16,709 nt of DNA from an uncultured bacterium (GCA_964573245.1 CAZNJA010000027.1:1-16709); one strand, 5' to 3'. Shown: positions 8,422-13,537, counted from the first letter of the stretch. The notes: generated from the sequence alone by a model not told the origin. Translations and numbers: made by a program.

Positions 8422-10227
8422 ATGCAAATAAAAAGTATAGTCCTCACAATTTTTGTAACTTTATTCTTAGCTATAGCCCATTCTTCTGCCGACGACTTCT
8501 TCCCTAAAGATACATGGAAAGACCAACCCAATCCCTTAGTAAGTCCCGATGCAAAAGTCGGCGGGGAAATATCCACTTATGTAGGCCAGTATCCAAAGAG
8601 TTTAAATTACTATATTGAGAATAGCAGTTTTGCATCCCAAGTGTTTGCAGCTATGTATGACTCTCTTCTTGGTAAGAATTCAATTACGGCTGAATACGAG
8701 CCGATGCTCGCTAAAAAGTGGAGCATATCGGACGATAAAAAAACATTTACCTTCTGGCTTGATGAACGCGCAAAATGGAGCGACAGCAAACCGATTACCG
8801 CATACGATGTTGCGTGGACATTTCAAGCTGTAATGGATCCAAAAAATTTAACCGGAACTCATAAAGTAATACTGGAGAATTTTTTCCCGCCCGAAGTAAT
8901 AGACGAACAAACAATCCAATTTCAGGCAAAAGAAGTGCACTGGAAAAATCTGCTGGCATTGGGCGGGTTTAATATATTGCCTAAGCATATTTTCGAAAAA
9001 CAGGATTTTAATAAACTCAATTTTGAATTTCCTGTAGTATCCGGTCCGTATAAACTCGGTGAAATCAAAGAAGGGCTTTTTATCAAGATCCAGCGCAGAA
9101 ATAACTGGTGGTTAGCTTCAGCAAAACTTTTCCGGAATACCGATAATTTTCAAACTATCATTTTTAAATTCTTCGAAGAGAGGGAAAATGCATTTGAAGC
9201 GTTCAAGAAAGGGTTAATAGATATCTATCCTGTTTCTACATCACGCCTTTGGATAAACGAGACAAAGGGCGAAAAATTCGATAAGAATTGGATTATCAAA
9301 CAAAAAATATATAACTATCAACCTGCGTCTTTTCAGGGTTTTGCTATGAATATGAGACGCCCGCCGTTTGATGATATACAGGTAAGAAAAGCGATGGCTT
9401 ATATGCTTGACAGAGAAAAGATGAACCGCACGCTTATGTATAACCAGTACAGTATGCATCGTTCATATTTCGAAGACCTTTATTCCAAAGAAAACCCCTG
9501 TAAGAATGTATTTTTTGATTTTAATAAGGAAAAAGCGAGGGCATTACTTAAAGAGGCGGGTTGGCAGGTAAATCCCCAGACAGGATTACTTGAGAAAGAC
9601 GGAAAACGTTTTTCCTTTAAATTTCTTACGCGCGATGCTTCCACAGAAAAATTTGTTAACATCTATGCCGAAGACCTAAAAGACATGGGGATTGAGCTAA
9701 CAATAGACAAGAAAGATTGGGCAACATGGGTAAAGGATATGGACGAATTCAATTTTGACATGACTTGGGCGGCATGGGGCTCGCTTATATTTAAAGACCC
9801 TGAAGGAATGTGGGCTTCCAAAGAAGCAGACAGGAATTCGGGAAATAATATTACGGGATTCAAAGACCCTCAGGTTGATGCTCTTATAGAAAAACAAAAA
9901 ACGATTTTTAATGTGAATGAGAGAAATGCCATCTGCTGTGAGATTGATGCTATTATTACCAGCCAGTGTCCGTATGTTTTACTATGGAGAATAAATTATA
10001 TACGTTTGCTTTACTGGAATAAATTCGGCACTCCGCCAACAATATTATCCAGATACGGCGATGAAAGGTCTGCTTACAGCTATTGGTGGTATGACGAGGA
10101 TTCGGCTGAAGATTTGACTGATGCCATGGAAAACGGCAGGTATCTGCCAGGGGAAAAATCTTCGGTTTATTTTGACGCGGAATTTACGAGATTAGAACAA
10201 TCAAGAAAAAATGATGGAAATAATTGA
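8422..10227 (+). CDS. Peptide ABC transporter substrate-binding protein, family 5 (YejA-like)
   Basis: Signal peptide; P.A..GG, LAKKWSISDDKKTFTFWL...AKWSDSKPITAYDV, SGPYK, NMRRPPFDDIQVRKAM, W..D C-terminus typical of YejA. Confidence 0.9.
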   Translation: MQIKSIVLTIFVTLFLAIAHSSADDFFPKDTWKDQPNPLVSPDAKVGGEISTYVGQYPKSLNYYIENSSFASQVFAAMYDSLLGKNSITAEYEPMLAKKWSISDDKKTFTFWLDERAKWSDSKPITAYDVAWTFQAVMDPKNLTGTHKVILENFFPPEVIDEQTIQFQAKEVHWKNLLALGGFNILPKHIFEKQDFNKLNFEFPVVSGPYKLGEIKEGLFIKIQRRNNWWLASAKLFRNTDNFQTIIFKFFEERENAFEAFKKGLIDIYPVSTSRLWINETKGEKFDKNWIIKQKIYNYQPASFQGFAMNMRRPPFDDIQVRKAMAYMLDREKMNRTLMYNQYSMHRSYFEDLYSKENPCKNVFFDFNKEKARALLKEAGWQVNPQTGLLEKDGKRFSFKFLTRDASTEKFVNIYAEDLKDMGIELTIDKKDWATWVKDMDEFNFDMTWAAWGSLIFKDPEGMWASKEADRNSGNNITGFKDPQVDALIEKQKTIFNVNERNAICCEIDAIITSQCPYVLLWRINYIRLLYWNKFGTPPTILSRYGDERSAYSYWWYDEDSAEDLTDAMENGRYLPGEKSSVYFDAEFTRLEQSRKNDGNN

Positions 10228-10331
10228 GCCCCCATATCCTGTTTTGCGCAGCAAAACAATGGGGGGAGGAATAATTTTTATCCGCCACTCCCGCCACTAA
10301 AGATTAGGCGGGCAAGAAAACTTTGGCGGAT
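10226..10331. repeat. Cluster of REP-like palindromes between the SBP and permease genes
   Basis: GAG[CCCCCAT..TGTTTTGC-GCA-GCAAAACA-ATGGGGG]GAG at 10226-10268; ATCCGCCA (10280-10287) and TGGCGGAT (10324-10331) enclose CCCGCC (10290-10295) and GGCGGG (10307-10312). Confidence 0.7.
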
Positions 10332-10358: not shown

Positions 10359-11399
10359 ATGGAAAGAACGGAATATTTTATAAGGCGGCTTCTATTAATA
10401 GTTCCTACTTTTATAGGAATAACTATTATATGTTTCGCTCTTATCCAATTTGTTCCCGGCGGACCCGTTGAACAGAAAATAATGCAGATGAGGGCTGCTG
10501 CAGAAGGTGAAGCGGGAAAAGGCGCTTCTTCAACAACATCTATAACATCCGAATACCGTAAACAACTGGAAATCCATTTCGGTTTTGATAAGCCTTTTTA
10601 CAAACGGTATTTTAAATGGCTTATCAATGATCGTATCGGCCTGAGGATGGAATCATACAAGTTTCCCAACAAAACTGCCTGGCAGCTTATACGTGAAAGG
10701 TTGCCCGTATCTTTAATCTTCGGGATCACCGGGTTTTTACTTAGTTATCTGATATGTATTCCTCTGGGAATTGCCAAAGCATTACGACACGGAAGTAAAT
10801 TCGACTTTGCTTCAAGTGTAATTATATTTATCGGATACGCTATCCCTGGGTTTGCATTCGGTATGATTTTAAAAATGCTTTTATGCGGAACAGTGGAAGG
10901 TCTGTGGGATATATTCCCCGTTACCGGGTTTCATTCATATAATTTTGCATTGCTTTCTTTTCCCGTAAAGGTAAAAGACATTTTTATGCATATGTTTCTG
11001 CCCGTACTGTGTTATGTAATCGGTAATTTTGCGGTTTTGACTTTACTAATGAAAAATTCTCTTTTGGAACAGATAGGAAAGGACTATATCCGCACCGTGC
11101 TTGCAAAAGGAGGCAGTTCCAAAAGGGCAATATGGGCTCATGCCTTGAGGAATTCTTTAATACCTATTGCGACAGGTTTCGGCGGCATTCTTATGGTTAT
11201 GTTTGCGGGCTCCGTGATAATAGAACAAATTTTTGAGATACCGGGGATGGGACGATTAAGTTTAGAAGCCATAATGGGACGGGATTATGCGGTATTCATG
11301 GCTATTTTAGCCCTCACTTCAATACTTACACTTTTAGGCAATATTCTTTCGGATTTCTGTTATGTCTTAATAGACCCGAGAATAACTTTTAACAAATGA
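10359..11399 (+). CDS. yejB: Peptide ABC transporter permease (YejB/OppB-like)
   Basis: YFIRRLLLIVPT, IQFVPGGPVEQ, FGFDKP, PLGIAKALRHGSKFD, EAA loop DYIRTVLAKG, HALRNSLIP, DPRI. Confidence 0.88.
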   Translation: MERTEYFIRRLLLIVPTFIGITIICFALIQFVPGGPVEQKIMQMRAAAEGEAGKGASSTTSITSEYRKQLEIHFGFDKPFYKRYFKWLINDRIGLRMESYKFPNKTAWQLIRERLPVSLIFGITGFLLSYLICIPLGIAKALRHGSKFDFASSVIIFIGYAIPGFAFGMILKMLLCGTVEGLWDIFPVTGFHSYNFALLSFPVKVKDIFMHMFLPVLCYVIGNFAVLTLLMKNSLLEQIGKDYIRTVLAKGGSSKRAIWAHALRNSLIPIATGFGGILMVMFAGSVIIEQIFEIPGMGRLSLEAIMGRDYAVFMAILALTSILTLLGNILSDFCYVLIDPRITFNK

Positions 11400-11721
11400 C
11401 CCCACACCTTTATATTCATAATGCGTATTTTAAAAGATGCGGGATTTAAAAATGTATTACGTTTACCTTTTGAAAAGTAAAAAGAATGGTTCCCTCTATA
11501 TAGGATATACAAAAAATATTAAAAAAAGGTTAAAAGAACATAATAGCGGAGTTGTTGGATATACAAGTAAACATAAACCTTGGAAGTTAATATATTACGA
11601 AAGTTTCCTTTCGTTAGAAGATGCTAAGAAACGAGAGAAAAGCCTTAAATATTTTGGTAAAGCATATAGTCAATTGAAAAACAGGATTAAAAATAGTTTA
11701 AATATAGGAGAAGGTGCGGGG
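11400..11721 (+). mobile_element. Putative palindrome-bounded element carrying a GIY-YIG gene (unit 1)
   Basis: Ends CCCCACACCTT (11400-11410) and AAGGTGCGGGG (11711-11721) are 10/11 inverted; flanked by TGA (11397-11399) and TGA (11722-11724). Confidence 0.6.
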
Positions 11722-11724
11722 TGA
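11452..11724 (+). CDS. Small stand-alone GIY-YIG endonuclease (UPF0213/YhbQ-like size)
   Basis: MYYVYLLKS...LYIGYT...RLKEHN...YT...PWKLIYYE...AKKREKSLK with catalytic Tyr/Arg/His/Glu positions present. The last codons (EGAG) are encoded by the repeat. An alternative in-frame ATG at 11437 lies in a repeat arm. Confidence 0.92.
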   Translation: MYYVYLLKSKKNGSLYIGYTKNIKKRLKEHNSGVVGYTSKHKPWKLIYYESFLSLEDAKKREKSLKYFGKAYSQLKNRIKNSLNIGEGAG

Positions 11725-11725
11725 A

Positions 11726-11855
11726 CCCCGCACCTTCTAAAATTCAATATGTTAAGGGTGTGGAATGTTCAGATATTAAGAGACGTAGAGGATTAAAACA
11801 AATGAATCCCGCATCTTTGAAAAGGCGCGGGATGAATAACAAAGAAGGTGCGGGG
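11726..11855. mobile_element. Non-coding MITE/REP-like element (unit 2) with a nested 26-bp mini-element at 11807-11832
   Basis: Perfect 13-bp terminal inverted repeats CCCCGCACCTTCT (11726-11738) and AGAAGGTGCGGGG (11843-11855), flanked by TGAA/TGAA; inner TGAA[TCCCGCATCTTT-GA-AAAGGCGCGGGA]TGAA. Confidence 0.7.
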
Positions 11856-13438
11856 TGAATACCATAACACAAAAACGGATTCGCAGGTTCAAGGAGAAAA
11901 AAAGAGCATATTGGGCATTATTATTGCTCATCATACTTTACATATTGAGTTTGGCTTCGGAATTAATCTGCAATGATAAACCGTTATACATAAGATATAA
12001 CGATAAGTCGTATTTCCCTATCTTTAAATATTACCCGGAGGATACTTTCCTTCGAAACGGTAAACAAACGCGACCTAATTATAAGCAAGTCAATCAAAAT
12101 TCTATATTTGCGGCTAATCCGCAAAACTTTATGGTATTCCCGCTTATACCCTATGGCCCCTATGAAAATATTGACCCCGAATCATTACGCTCTGAAGAGA
12201 GAGTCACACTGACTTTTACACCTATTCCGAGAGTTGGTAATGTAAATATACGTCCGGATTTCAGCATAGCCCGCTCAAGAACTTGCGGTTTCTTTTTTAA
12301 CATTGAAGACGACTTAGTAAAAGGACTGACACTAAGCGACTATTGGGACGTTAACCCCAAATTAACAAGCGCTATAAAAGACAGGTTTCTTAATAAAAAT
12401 TCGGTGTCTTTATCGGCTGTTCTGACAAGCAAGATAAAACCGCAAATTAAAGCGGAAATTTCGCTATCGGAATTCTCAAGACGGGATAGCCTACCCGATA
12501 CAATACGCATAAGTTTTAGGGAACCACTCGGGGAAATTTTAAAGGCCGAAACTGTAGTTTTTAACAGGGAAATGAAAACAACGGGAAGGATACCAAAATT
12601 ATGGGAAGCAATAAACATTGACAAACACAGCCATCTGACCGATTTGGCAAACAAACGTTTCAGTGAATACATAGAACCTTTTACAACAACTATATTAAAC
12701 GGAGTATATAAAATCCGCATAGAAAAAAATGATATAACCTGGCCGCATTCTCCTATCCGCGGGCATTGGCTCGGTATCGACAGCAACGGACGCGATGTTT
12801 TGGCGCGCATCATTTACGGTCTGCGCATTTCTATGACGTTTGGGTTTCTGCTGGTTGCAGTATCAATGTTCATAGGCATTTTTGTTGGCGCAATCCAGGG
12901 ATATTTCGGAGGCAAATTGGATATTACCGGACAGCGTTTAATAGAAATATGGAGCGCTCTTCCGTTTTTATATGTAATGATATTATTGGGCTCTATTTAC
13001 GGCAGAAGTTTTGCCCTATTGCTTTTCTGTTACGGTATTTTCAACTGGATAGGAATCTCGTATTATATGCGCGGCGAATTCCTTCGCCTTCGAAAACAAC
13101 CGTTTGTTGATGCCGCAAAATGTATAGGAATATCCCCTTTCAAAATTATAATTAGACATATTCTTCCAAACGCCCTTACGCCCATCATCACATTTTTCCC
13201 TTTTTATCTTGTGGGTGCAATAGGCGCATTGGCGGCATTGGACTTTTTGGGATTCGGGCTGCCCCCGCCTACTCCCAGCTGGGGCGAACTTTTACACCAG
13301 GCGCAACAGTTCCGTTGGGCGTGGTGGCTTATACTTTATCCTTCACTTGCTCTTTTTGTGGTTATGCTTTTGGGGATTTTTATAGGAGAAGGCGTGAGGG
13401 ACGCTTTTGACCCGCGCCCTTACAGCAGGATGGAATAA
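11855..13438 (+). CDS. yejE: Peptide ABC transporter permease (YejE/OppC-like) with an enlarged extracytoplasmic domain
   Basis: RRFK..KRAYW, SELICNDKPL, HWLGIDSNGRDVLARIIYGLRIS, GAIQGYFGG, RGEFLRLR, LDFLGFGLPPPTPSWGELL, GEGVRDAFDPR. The GTG start is formed at the repeat end. Confidence 0.88.
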   Translation: MNTITQKRIRRFKEKKRAYWALLLLIILYILSLASELICNDKPLYIRYNDKSYFPIFKYYPEDTFLRNGKQTRPNYKQVNQNSIFAANPQNFMVFPLIPYGPYENIDPESLRSEERVTLTFTPIPRVGNVNIRPDFSIARSRTCGFFFNIEDDLVKGLTLSDYWDVNPKLTSAIKDRFLNKNSVSLSAVLTSKIKPQIKAEISLSEFSRRDSLPDTIRISFREPLGEILKAETVVFNREMKTTGRIPKLWEAINIDKHSHLTDLANKRFSEYIEPFTTTILNGVYKIRIEKNDITWPHSPIRGHWLGIDSNGRDVLARIIYGLRISMTFGFLLVAVSMFIGIFVGAIQGYFGGKLDITGQRLIEIWSALPFLYVMILLGSIYGRSFALLLFCYGIFNWIGISYYMRGEFLRLRKQPFVDAAKCIGISPFKIIIRHILPNALTPIITFFPFYLVGAIGALAALDFLGFGLPPPTPSWGELLHQAQQFRWAWWLILYPSLALFVVMLLGIFIGEGVRDAFDPRPYSRME

Positions 13439-13439
13439 A

Positions 13440-13537
13440 CCCCGCTCCCCGTGCTAAAGCACGGGGCTTTGGGGAAAACTTAATAATACAAACCCTCCAT
13501 CTCCGCTCTAAAGAACGGGGCTTTTTTGGGGGCGGGG
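13440..13537. mobile_element. 98-bp MITE/REP-like element between the permease and ATPase genes
   Basis: TAAA[CCCCGCTCCC ... GGGGGCGGGG]TAAA (ends 9/10 inverted); internal hairpin CCCCGTGCT-AA-AGCACGGGG (13447-13466) with a degenerate second copy at 13501-13520. Confidence 0.65.

Follow-up and report, generated by a model that had tools for sequence, protein, structure and literature searches.

A GIY-YIG nuclease gene within inverted repeats at a yejB/yejE junction: a probable nest of miniature mobile elements in an uncultured bacterium

Introduction

The closest described relatives of the locus reported here are the Ssn nucleases, small GIY-YIG enzymes whose genes have been tied to flanking hairpin repeats (Chenal et al., Nat Commun 2025, PMC11893778). 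SsnA is a 94-aa single-domain GIY-YIG protein which binds a hairpin with a CCCGC core only as single-stranded DNA (ssDNA) and makes its cut a few bases upstream. Cleavage is dependent on the trinucleotide preceding the palindrome, and the enzyme also works with the stem halves on separate strands or with an extended loop. The Discussion of the same paper calls the layout of the gene between its repeats, NTS-ssnA-NTS, 'identical' to that of an insertion sequence (IS). Small GIY-YIG genes are also found in scattered insertions, neither group I nor group II introns, in rRNA genes of the candidate phyla radiation (CPR) (J Bacteriol 2024, PMC11270868); ends, duplications and protein-gene targets are not described in the available portions of that report. 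Here we analyzed a 16,709-nt stretch of DNA from an uncultured bacterium (GCA_964573245.1 CAZNJA010000027.1:1-16709; the whole stretch is called the window hereafter, and is contig C27 of genome G000). In it, the 455 bases between the yejB-like and yejE-like permease genes of a transporter operon hold an intact 90-codon GIY-YIG gene and seven arms of the motif CCCGCACCTT. Taken overall, the locus is probably best explained as a nuclease-bearing nest of mobile elements.

The locus resembles the Ssn arrangement in several respects. Both encode a single-domain GIY-YIG protein of about 90 residues (90 aa here versus 94), both genes are flanked on each side by G+C-rich inverted repeats with a CCCGC/GCGGG core, and gene-less copies of the repeat occur elsewhere in the genome. 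A trinucleotide also stands beside the repeat: the NTS foot GTCAT-TCCCGCG reads CGCGGGA-ATGAC on the other strand (GCGGGAATGAC), to which the window ends GCGGGG-TGA and GCGGGA-TGAAT (GCGGGGTGA and GCGGGATGAAT) are comparable. The arrangement differs in that each NTS flank is a complete local hairpin of 20-50 nt, whereas here there is a single arm per end and the arms pair across the gene. The Ssn paper reports enzyme activity and a role in transformation, but, in the portions consulted, none of the empty sites, duplications, element boundaries or derivatives that are seen here. A full-text literature search, with subscription journals outside its scope, found no GIY-YIG element with terminal inverted repeats, duplications, empty sites and gene-less derivatives. 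The initial annotation of this DNA had proposed a candidate new mobile system. An insertion family is supported by our analysis, but its novelty is reduced: the Ssn-type enzyme, the flanking repeats and the IS-like layout are already known from PMC11893778, and mobility has been suspected in print. What is new, as far as we found, is that single arms serve as the true terminal repeats, that insertion is evident, with the stop and start codons rebuilt, and that full elements are nested with gene-less ones in genomes of Omnitrophota and Patescibacteria type.

Results

Nested inverted-repeat units between yejB and yejE

Seven arms match CCCGCACCTT with at most one mismatch, at 11401+, 11434-, 11711-, 11727+, 11808+, 11822- and 11845-. 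All lie within 11401-11854 and none in the rest of the window. In 200 shuffles the count averaged 0.50 and peaked at 3, with 0/200 reaching 7. At two mismatches or fewer the excess in the window is weak (15 versus 7.9 expected). The initial annotation had counted at least eight arms in 460 bp; seven of these stand, but the candidate eighth, near 11754 (TAAGGGTGTGG), is weaker and indel-bearing, with only an 11-nt inverted match (91%) to 11402-11412. Segments 11399-11410 and 11711-11722 are 92% complementary over 12 nt and enclose the nuclease gene (element A), and segments 11725-11738 and 11843-11856 are 100% complementary over 14 nt and enclose a gene-less unit (unit B). Where the right arm of element A meets the left arm of unit B, a perfect 14-nt palindrome arises from 11709-11722 and 11725-11738, its arms standing 2 nt apart. 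A mini-hairpin within unit B is formed by 11806-11818 and 11821-11833, which are 85% complementary.

Element A (11400-11721) is a full form of 322 nt, in which 11-nt terminal inverted repeats (CCCCGCACCTT / AAGGTGCGGGG) surround a single gene. Its left repeat, CCCCACACCTT (11400-11410, + strand), follows directly after the yejB stop TGA (11397-11399, + strand), as had been noticed initially, and has one mismatch to the family consensus, at 11404; the right repeat, AAGGTGCGGGG, lies at 11711-11721 (+ strand). The yejB TGA is the left flank copy of the insertion site. The gene is intact and runs on the + strand from the ATG at 11452 to the TGA at 11722-11724, encoding a 90-aa GIY-YIG nuclease (PF01541). 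It ends with the codons GGA GAA GGT GCG GGG TGA (G-E-G-A-G-stop), the last five and the stop lying in the right arm and flank, so that the repeat encodes the last residues of the protein and the duplicated TGA is its stop, in agreement with the first description. The TGAA at 11722-11725 (+ strand) is shared by both units: its TGA is the nuclease stop and the right flank copy of element A, and the whole TGAA is the left duplication of unit B. The interior of element A holds no open reading frame (ORF) of at least 60 aa besides the GIY-YIG gene and no known transposase domain by ORF and Pfam scan. A Pfam scan of the window likewise found no Y1/HUH transposase, in agreement on this point with the initial annotation. 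The exact 11-mer CCCCGCACCTT occurs only 3 times in the 1.46-Mb genome, every time at the yejB/yejE locus, and is no genome-wide repeat in G000.

The leader of element A contains a decayed hairpin of 34 nt (11413-11446) that is 82% complementary to 11805-11838 and includes the arm at 11434-11443. It resembles the 30-nt mini-element of unit B in reverse, is preceded by TATTCAT, the reverse complement of ATGAATA, and looks like a further nested copy. In the homologous locus L023, an insert was read by eye at the same leader position.

Unit B (11726-11855, + strand) is a gene-less element of 130 nt with 13-nt arms, CCCCGCACCTTCT (11726-11738) and AGAAGGTGCGGGG (11843-11855), that are 100% complementary. 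Its first 23 and last 24 nt align contiguously with the full elements L030 and L029 in a global alignment with cheap gaps. We considered unit B as an internal deletion of a full element and rejected this, as the middle ~53 nt are not confidently derivable from the gene. Judged by the alignment, unit B is a gene-less form whose ends are shared with full elements beyond the arms, and not a proven deletion derivative. Nested within it is a mini-element consisting of arms only (11802-11837, + strand), whose 24-nt core CCCGCATCTTTGAAAAGGCGCGGG (11808-11831) stands between ATGAAT direct repeats at 11802-11807 and 11832-11837. At the right end, the last G of unit B and the TG of the duplicated TGAA (11856-11859) create the GTG start of yejE, as had been pointed out initially. 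The right arm also places AAGGTG 4 nt upstream of this GTG, a Shine-Dalgarno-like sequence and possible ribosome-binding site for yejE.

Empty and partly filled junctions in relatives

The yejE N-terminus served as the query against 41 genomes, namely G000 and 40 relatives. In this sparsely sampled lineage, six matched, including G000, and three close relatives (G001, G002 and G004) gave readable yejB/yejE junctions. In G001, of the same genus, the site is empty: in TTTAATAAATGAATATAAGC, the stop of yejB and the start of yejE simply overlap as ATGA. The yejE gene of G001 starts at the ATG of this overlap, and a single TGAA stands where the window has duplicated copies. Deletion of 11400-11858 from the window leaves AACAAATGAATACC, an ATGA overlap as well, just as the initial annotation had stated. 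In G002, of the same genus, one 100-nt gene-less unit lies between TGAA copies and there is no nuclease gene. This unit is identical to unit B at 88/100 bases, ungapped, after the nested 30 nt are removed; the mini-element is absent from the G002 copy and is thus a 30-nt insertion relative to it. In G004, from another genus of the family, the gap holds an unrelated small hydrophobic ORF (by eye), and in G003, of the same genus and 81% complete, yejE was not matched. The G004 ORF (L010, reverse complement of 2015-2410) is ~95 aa long, comes with no repeat element and has an end that abuts ATAAATAAATGAATACA.

By this comparison, the original site is an ATGA stop/start overlap. Unit B, common to G000 and G002, was inserted first. 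Later, in the G000 lineage, a 30-nt arms-only hairpin entered the ATGAAT within unit B, and element A was inserted at the TGA on the left side of that unit. This order follows from G001 being empty, G002 having unit B alone and G000 having all. The best explanation of 11400-11855 is therefore a nest of three or four insertions of one miniature mobile element family, and we regard the real insertion of such a family as very likely.

The structure is also present in a contig from the X4 run, which differs at 22 positions in 458 nt and spans both the yejB/A and the A/B junctions, and is therefore not an artefact of one assembly or sample. At 11404, the one mismatched base of the left arm, the X4 contig reads the consensus G. 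The contigs of four runs, compared with 11000-12300, gave no empty-site or excised form, a weak test with depths of ~2-11 and rare variants dropped. Within 11707-11733, the X4 contig has paired mirror changes in the junction palindrome (11714 G>A with 11733 C>T), and its central TGAA is replaced by the reverse complement TTCA, which would remove the nuclease stop codon. This palindrome variant comes from one contig at a depth of 4.5 and may be an assembly error.

The nuclease gene and its ends are conserved together

The nuclease matches PF01541 at 65.3 bits against a cut-off of 22.6 (residues 6-71 of a 95-aa frame), which upholds the initial call of an intact 90-aa GIY-YIG gene. It matches GIY-YIG-type Pfam families alone, with T5orf172 and MUG113 weaker than PF01541; NCBIfam gives sub-threshold matches only, and Pfam detects no DNA-binding domain beyond the 90-aa catalytic core. 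By sequence, its closest solved relatives are UPF0213/YhbQ and SLX1 proteins (1zg2, E 2e-8; 1ywl, 2e-6 (UPF0213); SLX1 6seh, 3e-4). Residues Y16, R26, H30 and E62 are invariant in 14/14 aligned sequences and Y5 is kept in 13/14. Positions of the nuclease were equated, judged by position, with Y6, Y17 and E64 of SsnA, the residues mutated in PMC11893778. In the ten closest comparisons, pN/pS is 0.15-0.27: silent sites differ at 67-90% and are saturated, while replacement sites differ at 13-19%. The substitution pattern indicates that the nuclease is under purifying selection.

The homologue set was built with one genome per GTDB species, and we used the best 80 of 198 stretches encoding relatives. 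The closest 13 relatives (67-77% identical) come from metagenome-assembled genomes that are labelled Omnitrophota, Planctomycetota, Saccharibacteria or Uhrbacteria, or are unclassified. In 13/13 of these homologues, all from other genomes, the gene is bordered by CCCCGCACCTT(C/T)T on the left and by A(A/G)AAGGTGCGGG(G/A) on the right. Their host contexts differ, and include the starts of gpsA, nrdR and leuD, a gcvPA/gcvPB ATGA overlap, a TTGACA promoter box and an adjoining RNase P-like AGGAAAGTCCG. Three of the 13 end in (R/K)EGAG* like the window nuclease. The check proposed initially, on small GIY-YIG proteins with such an ending, their flanking arms and variable host loci, thus favors the first reading among the closest relatives. 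Within loci L023-L032, 20/20 arms keep the exact 10-mer while silent sites are saturated. With the gene constrained and the arms exact at such divergence, gene and two ends are conserved as one unit.

In the wider set, a flanking inverted repeat scoring at least 10 was found at 51/80 homologue loci versus 6/80 in a control with the scanned window shifted 400 nt upstream, the median scores being 13 and 7. The arm sequence varies from locus to locus, with both arms changing together (CCCCACACC, CCCAGCACC, CCCCGCCCTTTC, CCCGTTAGAGATA and others).

The same-genus genomes hold no orthologue of the window nuclease; their best matches are 49-53% identical and at other loci. At E 0.001 or better there are 1, 6, 2 and 1 matches in G001, G002, G003 and G004, respectively, and G000 has five small genes related to the nuclease at E 0.01 or better. 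In both G001 and G004, a YhbQ/UPF0213-like paralogue occupies one conserved position, with a miaB/rimO-like gene (by eye) downstream of it. No arms were found at the 4 copies read (G000 C1:26102-26344, L015, L016 and L018), and the gene looks like a housekeeping one rather than a mobile one. The G000 copy, C1:26102-26344, has a TAA inside the match. Another paralogue, at L021 (G002:C104:1746-1961), lies amid hairpins GTCATTCCCG...CGGGAATC that match the NTS/SRM consensus by eye, and the genus seems to hold a canonical Ssn-type gene too.

Target motif and rebuilt host codons

Target statistics were taken from the 31 of 80 homologue loci with family-type ends 250-520 nt apart. Identical 4-mers flank the element at 11/31 of these loci, and the right flank is TGA in 12 and TTGA in 2. 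At 11/31 an ATG or GTG is rebuilt that opens an ORF of at least 50 codons, and 8/31 follow an upstream ORF of at least 50 codons that ends in the stop of the flank. In the closest clade, L023-L032, the site is TGA in 9/10, two of them with the left copy decayed to TAA, which is still a stop; L031 has TTGA. The flank of L035 is TCAA, the reverse complement of TTGA, and duplication therefore occurs in both orientations. The duplications of 3-4 nt proposed at the outset are accordingly seen, as TGA, TGAA, TGAG, TTGA and TCAA, but they are irregular. A strict 4-nt rule was rejected: element A and L032 fit 3 nt, several loci 4 nt, and three copies in genome G042, described below, none.

Targeting of codons at stop/start overlaps, as first proposed, describes the window and several loci, but it does not hold as a strict rule, which fails at L033 (a TTGACA promoter box), L034, L035, tRNA 5' ends and RNase P RNA sites. 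Judging from the flanks, the target is a 3-4-nt T-N-N-A or TGA motif and not the codon as such. The excess of stop/start sites can come either from a real preference for (A/G/T)TGA(A/G) or from the survival of insertions that spare compact operons, so the bias may in part be survivorship. The element ends look fitted to rebuilding host codons. The right arm ends in G or A before TGA, which makes a start codon, and in the window and L023-L025 it encodes the last residues of the nuclease, with the duplicated TGA as its stop.

Other insertions in these genomes were recorded at RNA genes. At L057:1482-2104 and L069:1474-2251, elements with arms of CCCCGCAC or CCCCACACC type touch or run into the 5' end of genes for bacterial RNase P RNA (Rfam RF00010, 230.6 and 108 bits), with the start of the model inside the right end of the element; L034 has the same AGGAAAGT flank and no Rfam match at the gathering score. 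Paralogues 38-53% identical to the nuclease lie at tRNA genes (Gln, Val, Ser, Pro), in G000 at L002 (C1:9818-10616), L004 (C14:13003-13756) and L003 (C23:1-737), and in G002 at L017, L019, L020 and L022. There, a duplicate of the tRNA's first 20-35 nt, or of a 22-nt stretch, stands on the far side of the nuclease gene (by eye), a style of insertion that differs from that of the window element.

Multiplied and gene-less copies

Genome G042 contains three copies of a sister family that are 93.2-97.8% identical over 278-279 nt, with arms CCCCGTTAGAG / CTCTAACGGGG around a GIY-YIG gene 46-47% identical to that of the window. Identity begins and ends exactly at the arms, and the flanks are 27-37% identical, which is chance level. 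The copies are lodged in the final codons of a pgk-like gene and, in two further genes, one M23-peptidase-like (genes by eye), immediately ahead of the stop, and the host proteins upstream now end in P-R-stop, encoded by the arm. At a further sister-family locus, L014 (G003:C13:10570-10821), the element is located within the 5' coding region of a prepilin-like gene, with K-G-F-T on one side and F-L-E-I-S-L-V-I-L-V-I-G on the other; the nuclease ORF is fused in frame to the remainder of that gene, giving a frame of 245 aa. The arm-encoded ...S-L-T-G directly precedes F-T-F-L-E, and by eye the result resembles a rebuilt prepilin cleavage site.

In G000 itself, this sister family (CCCCGTTAGA arms) makes 40 arm pairs, 29-151 nt apart, among 55 left and 53 right arms. 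Identical 4-mers flank 13/40 of these gene-less pairs (TTTA 7, TGAA 2, TCAA 2, TTCA 1 and TTGA 1), all of the form T-N-N-A. The window's own family, family 1, has a further gene-less copy in G000, 118 nt long (C28:635-752), which sits on a gene start with a TGAA duplication. Downstream of yejE, a 98-nt gene-less inverted-repeat element of a smaller family (13440-13537; arms CCCCGCTCCC / GGGGGCGGGG) lies between TAAA duplications, the left of which includes the yejE stop and the right of which ends 1 nt before the next ATG (13543). The operon has thus taken an insertion at another of its junctions as well. By comparison of genomes, then, we can show insertion, shared ends, a conserved unit of gene plus ends, gene-less forms and multiplication.

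A REP-like hairpin family, CCTGCCCGCC-loop-GGCGGGCAGG and variants, is separate from these elements and has dozens of copies in G000, one of them at ~10275-10325 of the window, between the binding-protein gene and yejB. The 22 candidate stretches from viral contigs, searched by a close-relative method, included a single weak relative (42% over 30 residues), and gave no sign that the element is carried by phages.

The host operon and its genome

The window's genome, G000, measures 1.46 Mb with 38% G+C in 110 contigs and is 93% complete. The operon encodes an oligopeptide-type ABC transporter by ORF calls and Pfam. It comprises a solute-binding protein gene (8422-10227; ORF and Pfam), the yejB-like permease gene (10359-11399, + strand; BPD_transp_1, E 4e-34), the C-terminus of which is 96% identical to those of G001 and G002, the yejE-like permease gene (11855-13438, + strand; ORF, Pfam BPD_transp_1) and two ATPase genes (ORF and Pfam). 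A promoter-like site at 11389-11416 (TTAACA, 16 nt, TATATT; 10/12) covers the end of yejB, the left arm and the start of the leader, and could drive the nuclease gene. Such sites are no commoner in the window than in shuffles (8 versus 10.1 expected), that is, not above chance.

Discussion

The observation in the initial annotation is confirmed by our analysis, and its interpretation is supported in its main lines, with the caveats that the target is a short motif, that many repeats are orphans and that the system was partly anticipated in print. Several known systems share parts of this picture. The elements are like terminal-repeat IS and miniature inverted-repeat transposable elements, for example Correia/NEMIS of Neisseria, in having terminal inverted repeats, short duplications at part of the loci, full and gene-less forms, nested insertions and, in G042, multiple near-identical copies. 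They are unlike IS in that the sole protein is a GIY-YIG and not a DDE, HUH, serine, tyrosine or Cas1 enzyme, that the full element of ~280-330 bp is far smaller than usual, and that the ends rebuild host stop and start codons. With IS200/IS605 and REP/RAYT systems they share hairpin-forming G+C-rich repeats and insertion beside a short specific oligonucleotide, and the mechanism proposed below would resemble theirs in using a small nuclease on ssDNA hairpins. The differences from both are that the element contains no HUH/Y1 enzyme, has true inverted ends and shows TTGA/TCAA duplications in both orientations. Both systems are also taken up in PMC11893778.

The nuclease is, in our judgment, probably the element's own mobilizing enzyme. 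It would recognize its own arms and make the cuts that move the element. In ssDNA the two arms could pair as a stem with the gene as its loop, and the enzyme might cut at the foot of the stem, beside the flanking TGA; the scheme is modelled on the published SsnA. Since the ends are symmetric, the same cut could be made on the other strand. Host replication or repair would then complete insertion at short T-N-N-A sites, giving the 3-4-nt duplication, and the right arm would supply the Shine-Dalgarno-like AAGGTG, with which the operon would stay translatable. We offer this single-strand stem mechanism as a tentative model.

A number of points weigh against mobility driven by the nuclease. GIY-YIG nucleases are hydrolytic and no strand-transfer chemistry is known for the fold. 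The rejoining step must therefore come from the host, and it is the weakest link of the mechanism. All evidence for mobility is comparative. In G000, family 1 consists of this locus, a single full copy, plus the one gene-less copy, and being nearly single-locus it gives no sign of recent activity there. In the scanned windows, 29/80 homologue loci have no flanking repeat. Duplication length is not uniform, with 3 nt (TGA) at element A and 4 nt (TGAA) at unit B, and no duplication is seen at the three G042 copies or, as identical 4-mer flanks, at 27/40 gene-less pairs. The published SRM search pattern has no match in the window contig and 2 in G000, versus 0-5 in 5 shuffles; with a relaxed foot and a longer loop, it matches the mini-hairpin on the minus strand only.

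Repeat abundance adds to these points, as it does not follow the cognate nuclease. Exact CCCCGTTAGAG arms number 50 in G000, 33 in G001, 71 in G002, 29 in G003 and 2 in G004, and G003 is the only one of these five genomes with a nuclease 71% identical to that of the sister family. The best matches are 48% identical in G000 and 49% in G002, and there is no match to the sister-family nuclease at E 1e-6 in G001 (92% complete, 10 contigs) or G004. The correlation between repeat copy number and nuclease clade that the initial annotation had proposed to examine therefore did not appear, as illustrated by the 33 sister arms of G001 beside no close nuclease, and most gene-less copies are orphans, moved in trans by a more distant enzyme, or relics.

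One alternative is that the system is a domesticated one of Ssn type, with a host function such as limiting the recombination of incoming ssDNA at hairpin sites, and that the insertions belong to the past rather than to current mobility. Through its repeats, SsnA exerts a modulating effect on natural transformation in Neisseria, and domestication is proposed by the authors (PMC11893778). The purifying selection on the window nuclease fits this alternative, and so does the lack of an excision or empty-site contig in the four runs, which is weak, being based on contigs only. The nuclease gene is nevertheless present here and absent from the same site in two same-genus species, its nearest relatives occupy unrelated loci in other phyla, and the G042 copies are 93-98% identical to each other. 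Seven family arms, all beside the gene, are also too few for a genome-wide recognition system. We consider domestication in place of mobility unlikely; a host function is possible and compatible with mobility rather than exclusive of it.

A second alternative, which we hold to be quite unlikely, is that another enzyme, such as a REP-associated Y1/HUH transposase or one from an unassembled IS, moves the arms and gene-less copies in trans, with the GIY-YIG gene carried along as passive cargo or as a selfish passenger. Genomes without a cognate nuclease commonly hold gene-less copies, G000 has the separate and abundant CCTGCCCGCC...GGCGGGCAGG family, and its assembly is 93% complete. G000 also has one Y1_Tnp match (PF01797; C12:23931-24167, 32.7 bits versus a cut-off of 23). 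This domain, however, is the N-terminus of a 436-aa protein and reads Y-I-T where H-U-H is expected (by eye, position judged), and as the single weak Y1_Tnp domain in G000 it led us to reject a RAYT as the mobilizer. Against cargo, the arms are linked in cis to the GIY-YIG gene at 13/13 close and 51/80 wider loci in several phyla, and at the loci read nothing besides this gene lies between them. IS200/IS605-type elements carry subterminal hairpins at both ends and are not known to have terminal inverted repeats or a duplication.

Free-standing and intron-borne homing endonucleases provide a third comparison. T4 Seg and I-TevI have the GIY-YIG core and Seg genes are selfish genes between host genes, with SegB in a tRNA region; the paralogues at tRNA genes in this genus, with their duplicated tRNA 5' parts, resemble this pattern. 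A homing gene would cut the empty allele and be copied in by double-strand-break repair, the arms being incidental. Yet the nuclease has no DNA-binding domain beyond its 90-aa core and no long recognition site, and its at least 10 different, unrelated host sites share only 3-4 nt, too little for homing. Homing accounts for neither the conserved inverted ends nor the arms-only derivatives, and we find it improbable. Finally, that the palindromes are ordinary operon RNA structures (terminators or attenuators) with nothing mobile about them can practically be discounted: the palindrome 11709-11738 is flagged as terminator-like on the minus strand only and is followed by no T-run on the coding strand, and the reading is contradicted by G001, which lacks the whole block, and by the copies elsewhere, where the same arms bound the gene at unrelated loci.

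Mobilization by the nuclease thus remains the reading that we prefer, and a wider proposal can be attached to it, which we judge to fall a little short of an even chance. These elements may form a superfamily of the smallest self-contained prokaryotic DNA transposons known, of ~280-330 bp, in which the 'transposase' is a GIY-YIG nuclease of ~90 residues acting on the stem of its own inverted ends in ssDNA. Evolution would have fitted the ends for landing on stop/start junctions and for restoring stop, ribosome-binding site and start, so that the elements persist in the most compact genomes (Omnitrophota, Patescibacteria). If this is true, GIY-YIG enzymes, a class used by no described bacterial IS family, would be used by one, and, if the nuclease moves its own element, would become the sixth or seventh enzyme class of transposases; the minimal autonomous mobile element would shrink to ~300 bp. 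Each nuclease clade and its own arm sequence would be a candidate matched enzyme-site pair for ssDNA tools. The inserts create GTG and ATG starts, short tails on upstream proteins and fused frames, which gene callers will misread. The proposal, if true, would also give a natural biological role to the Ssn-type single-strand nucleases, whose function outside Neisseria was left open by their authors, and would account for many of the small inverted-repeat inserts that occur at gene starts and ends, at tRNA genes and at RNase P RNA genes of ultra-small uncultured bacteria.

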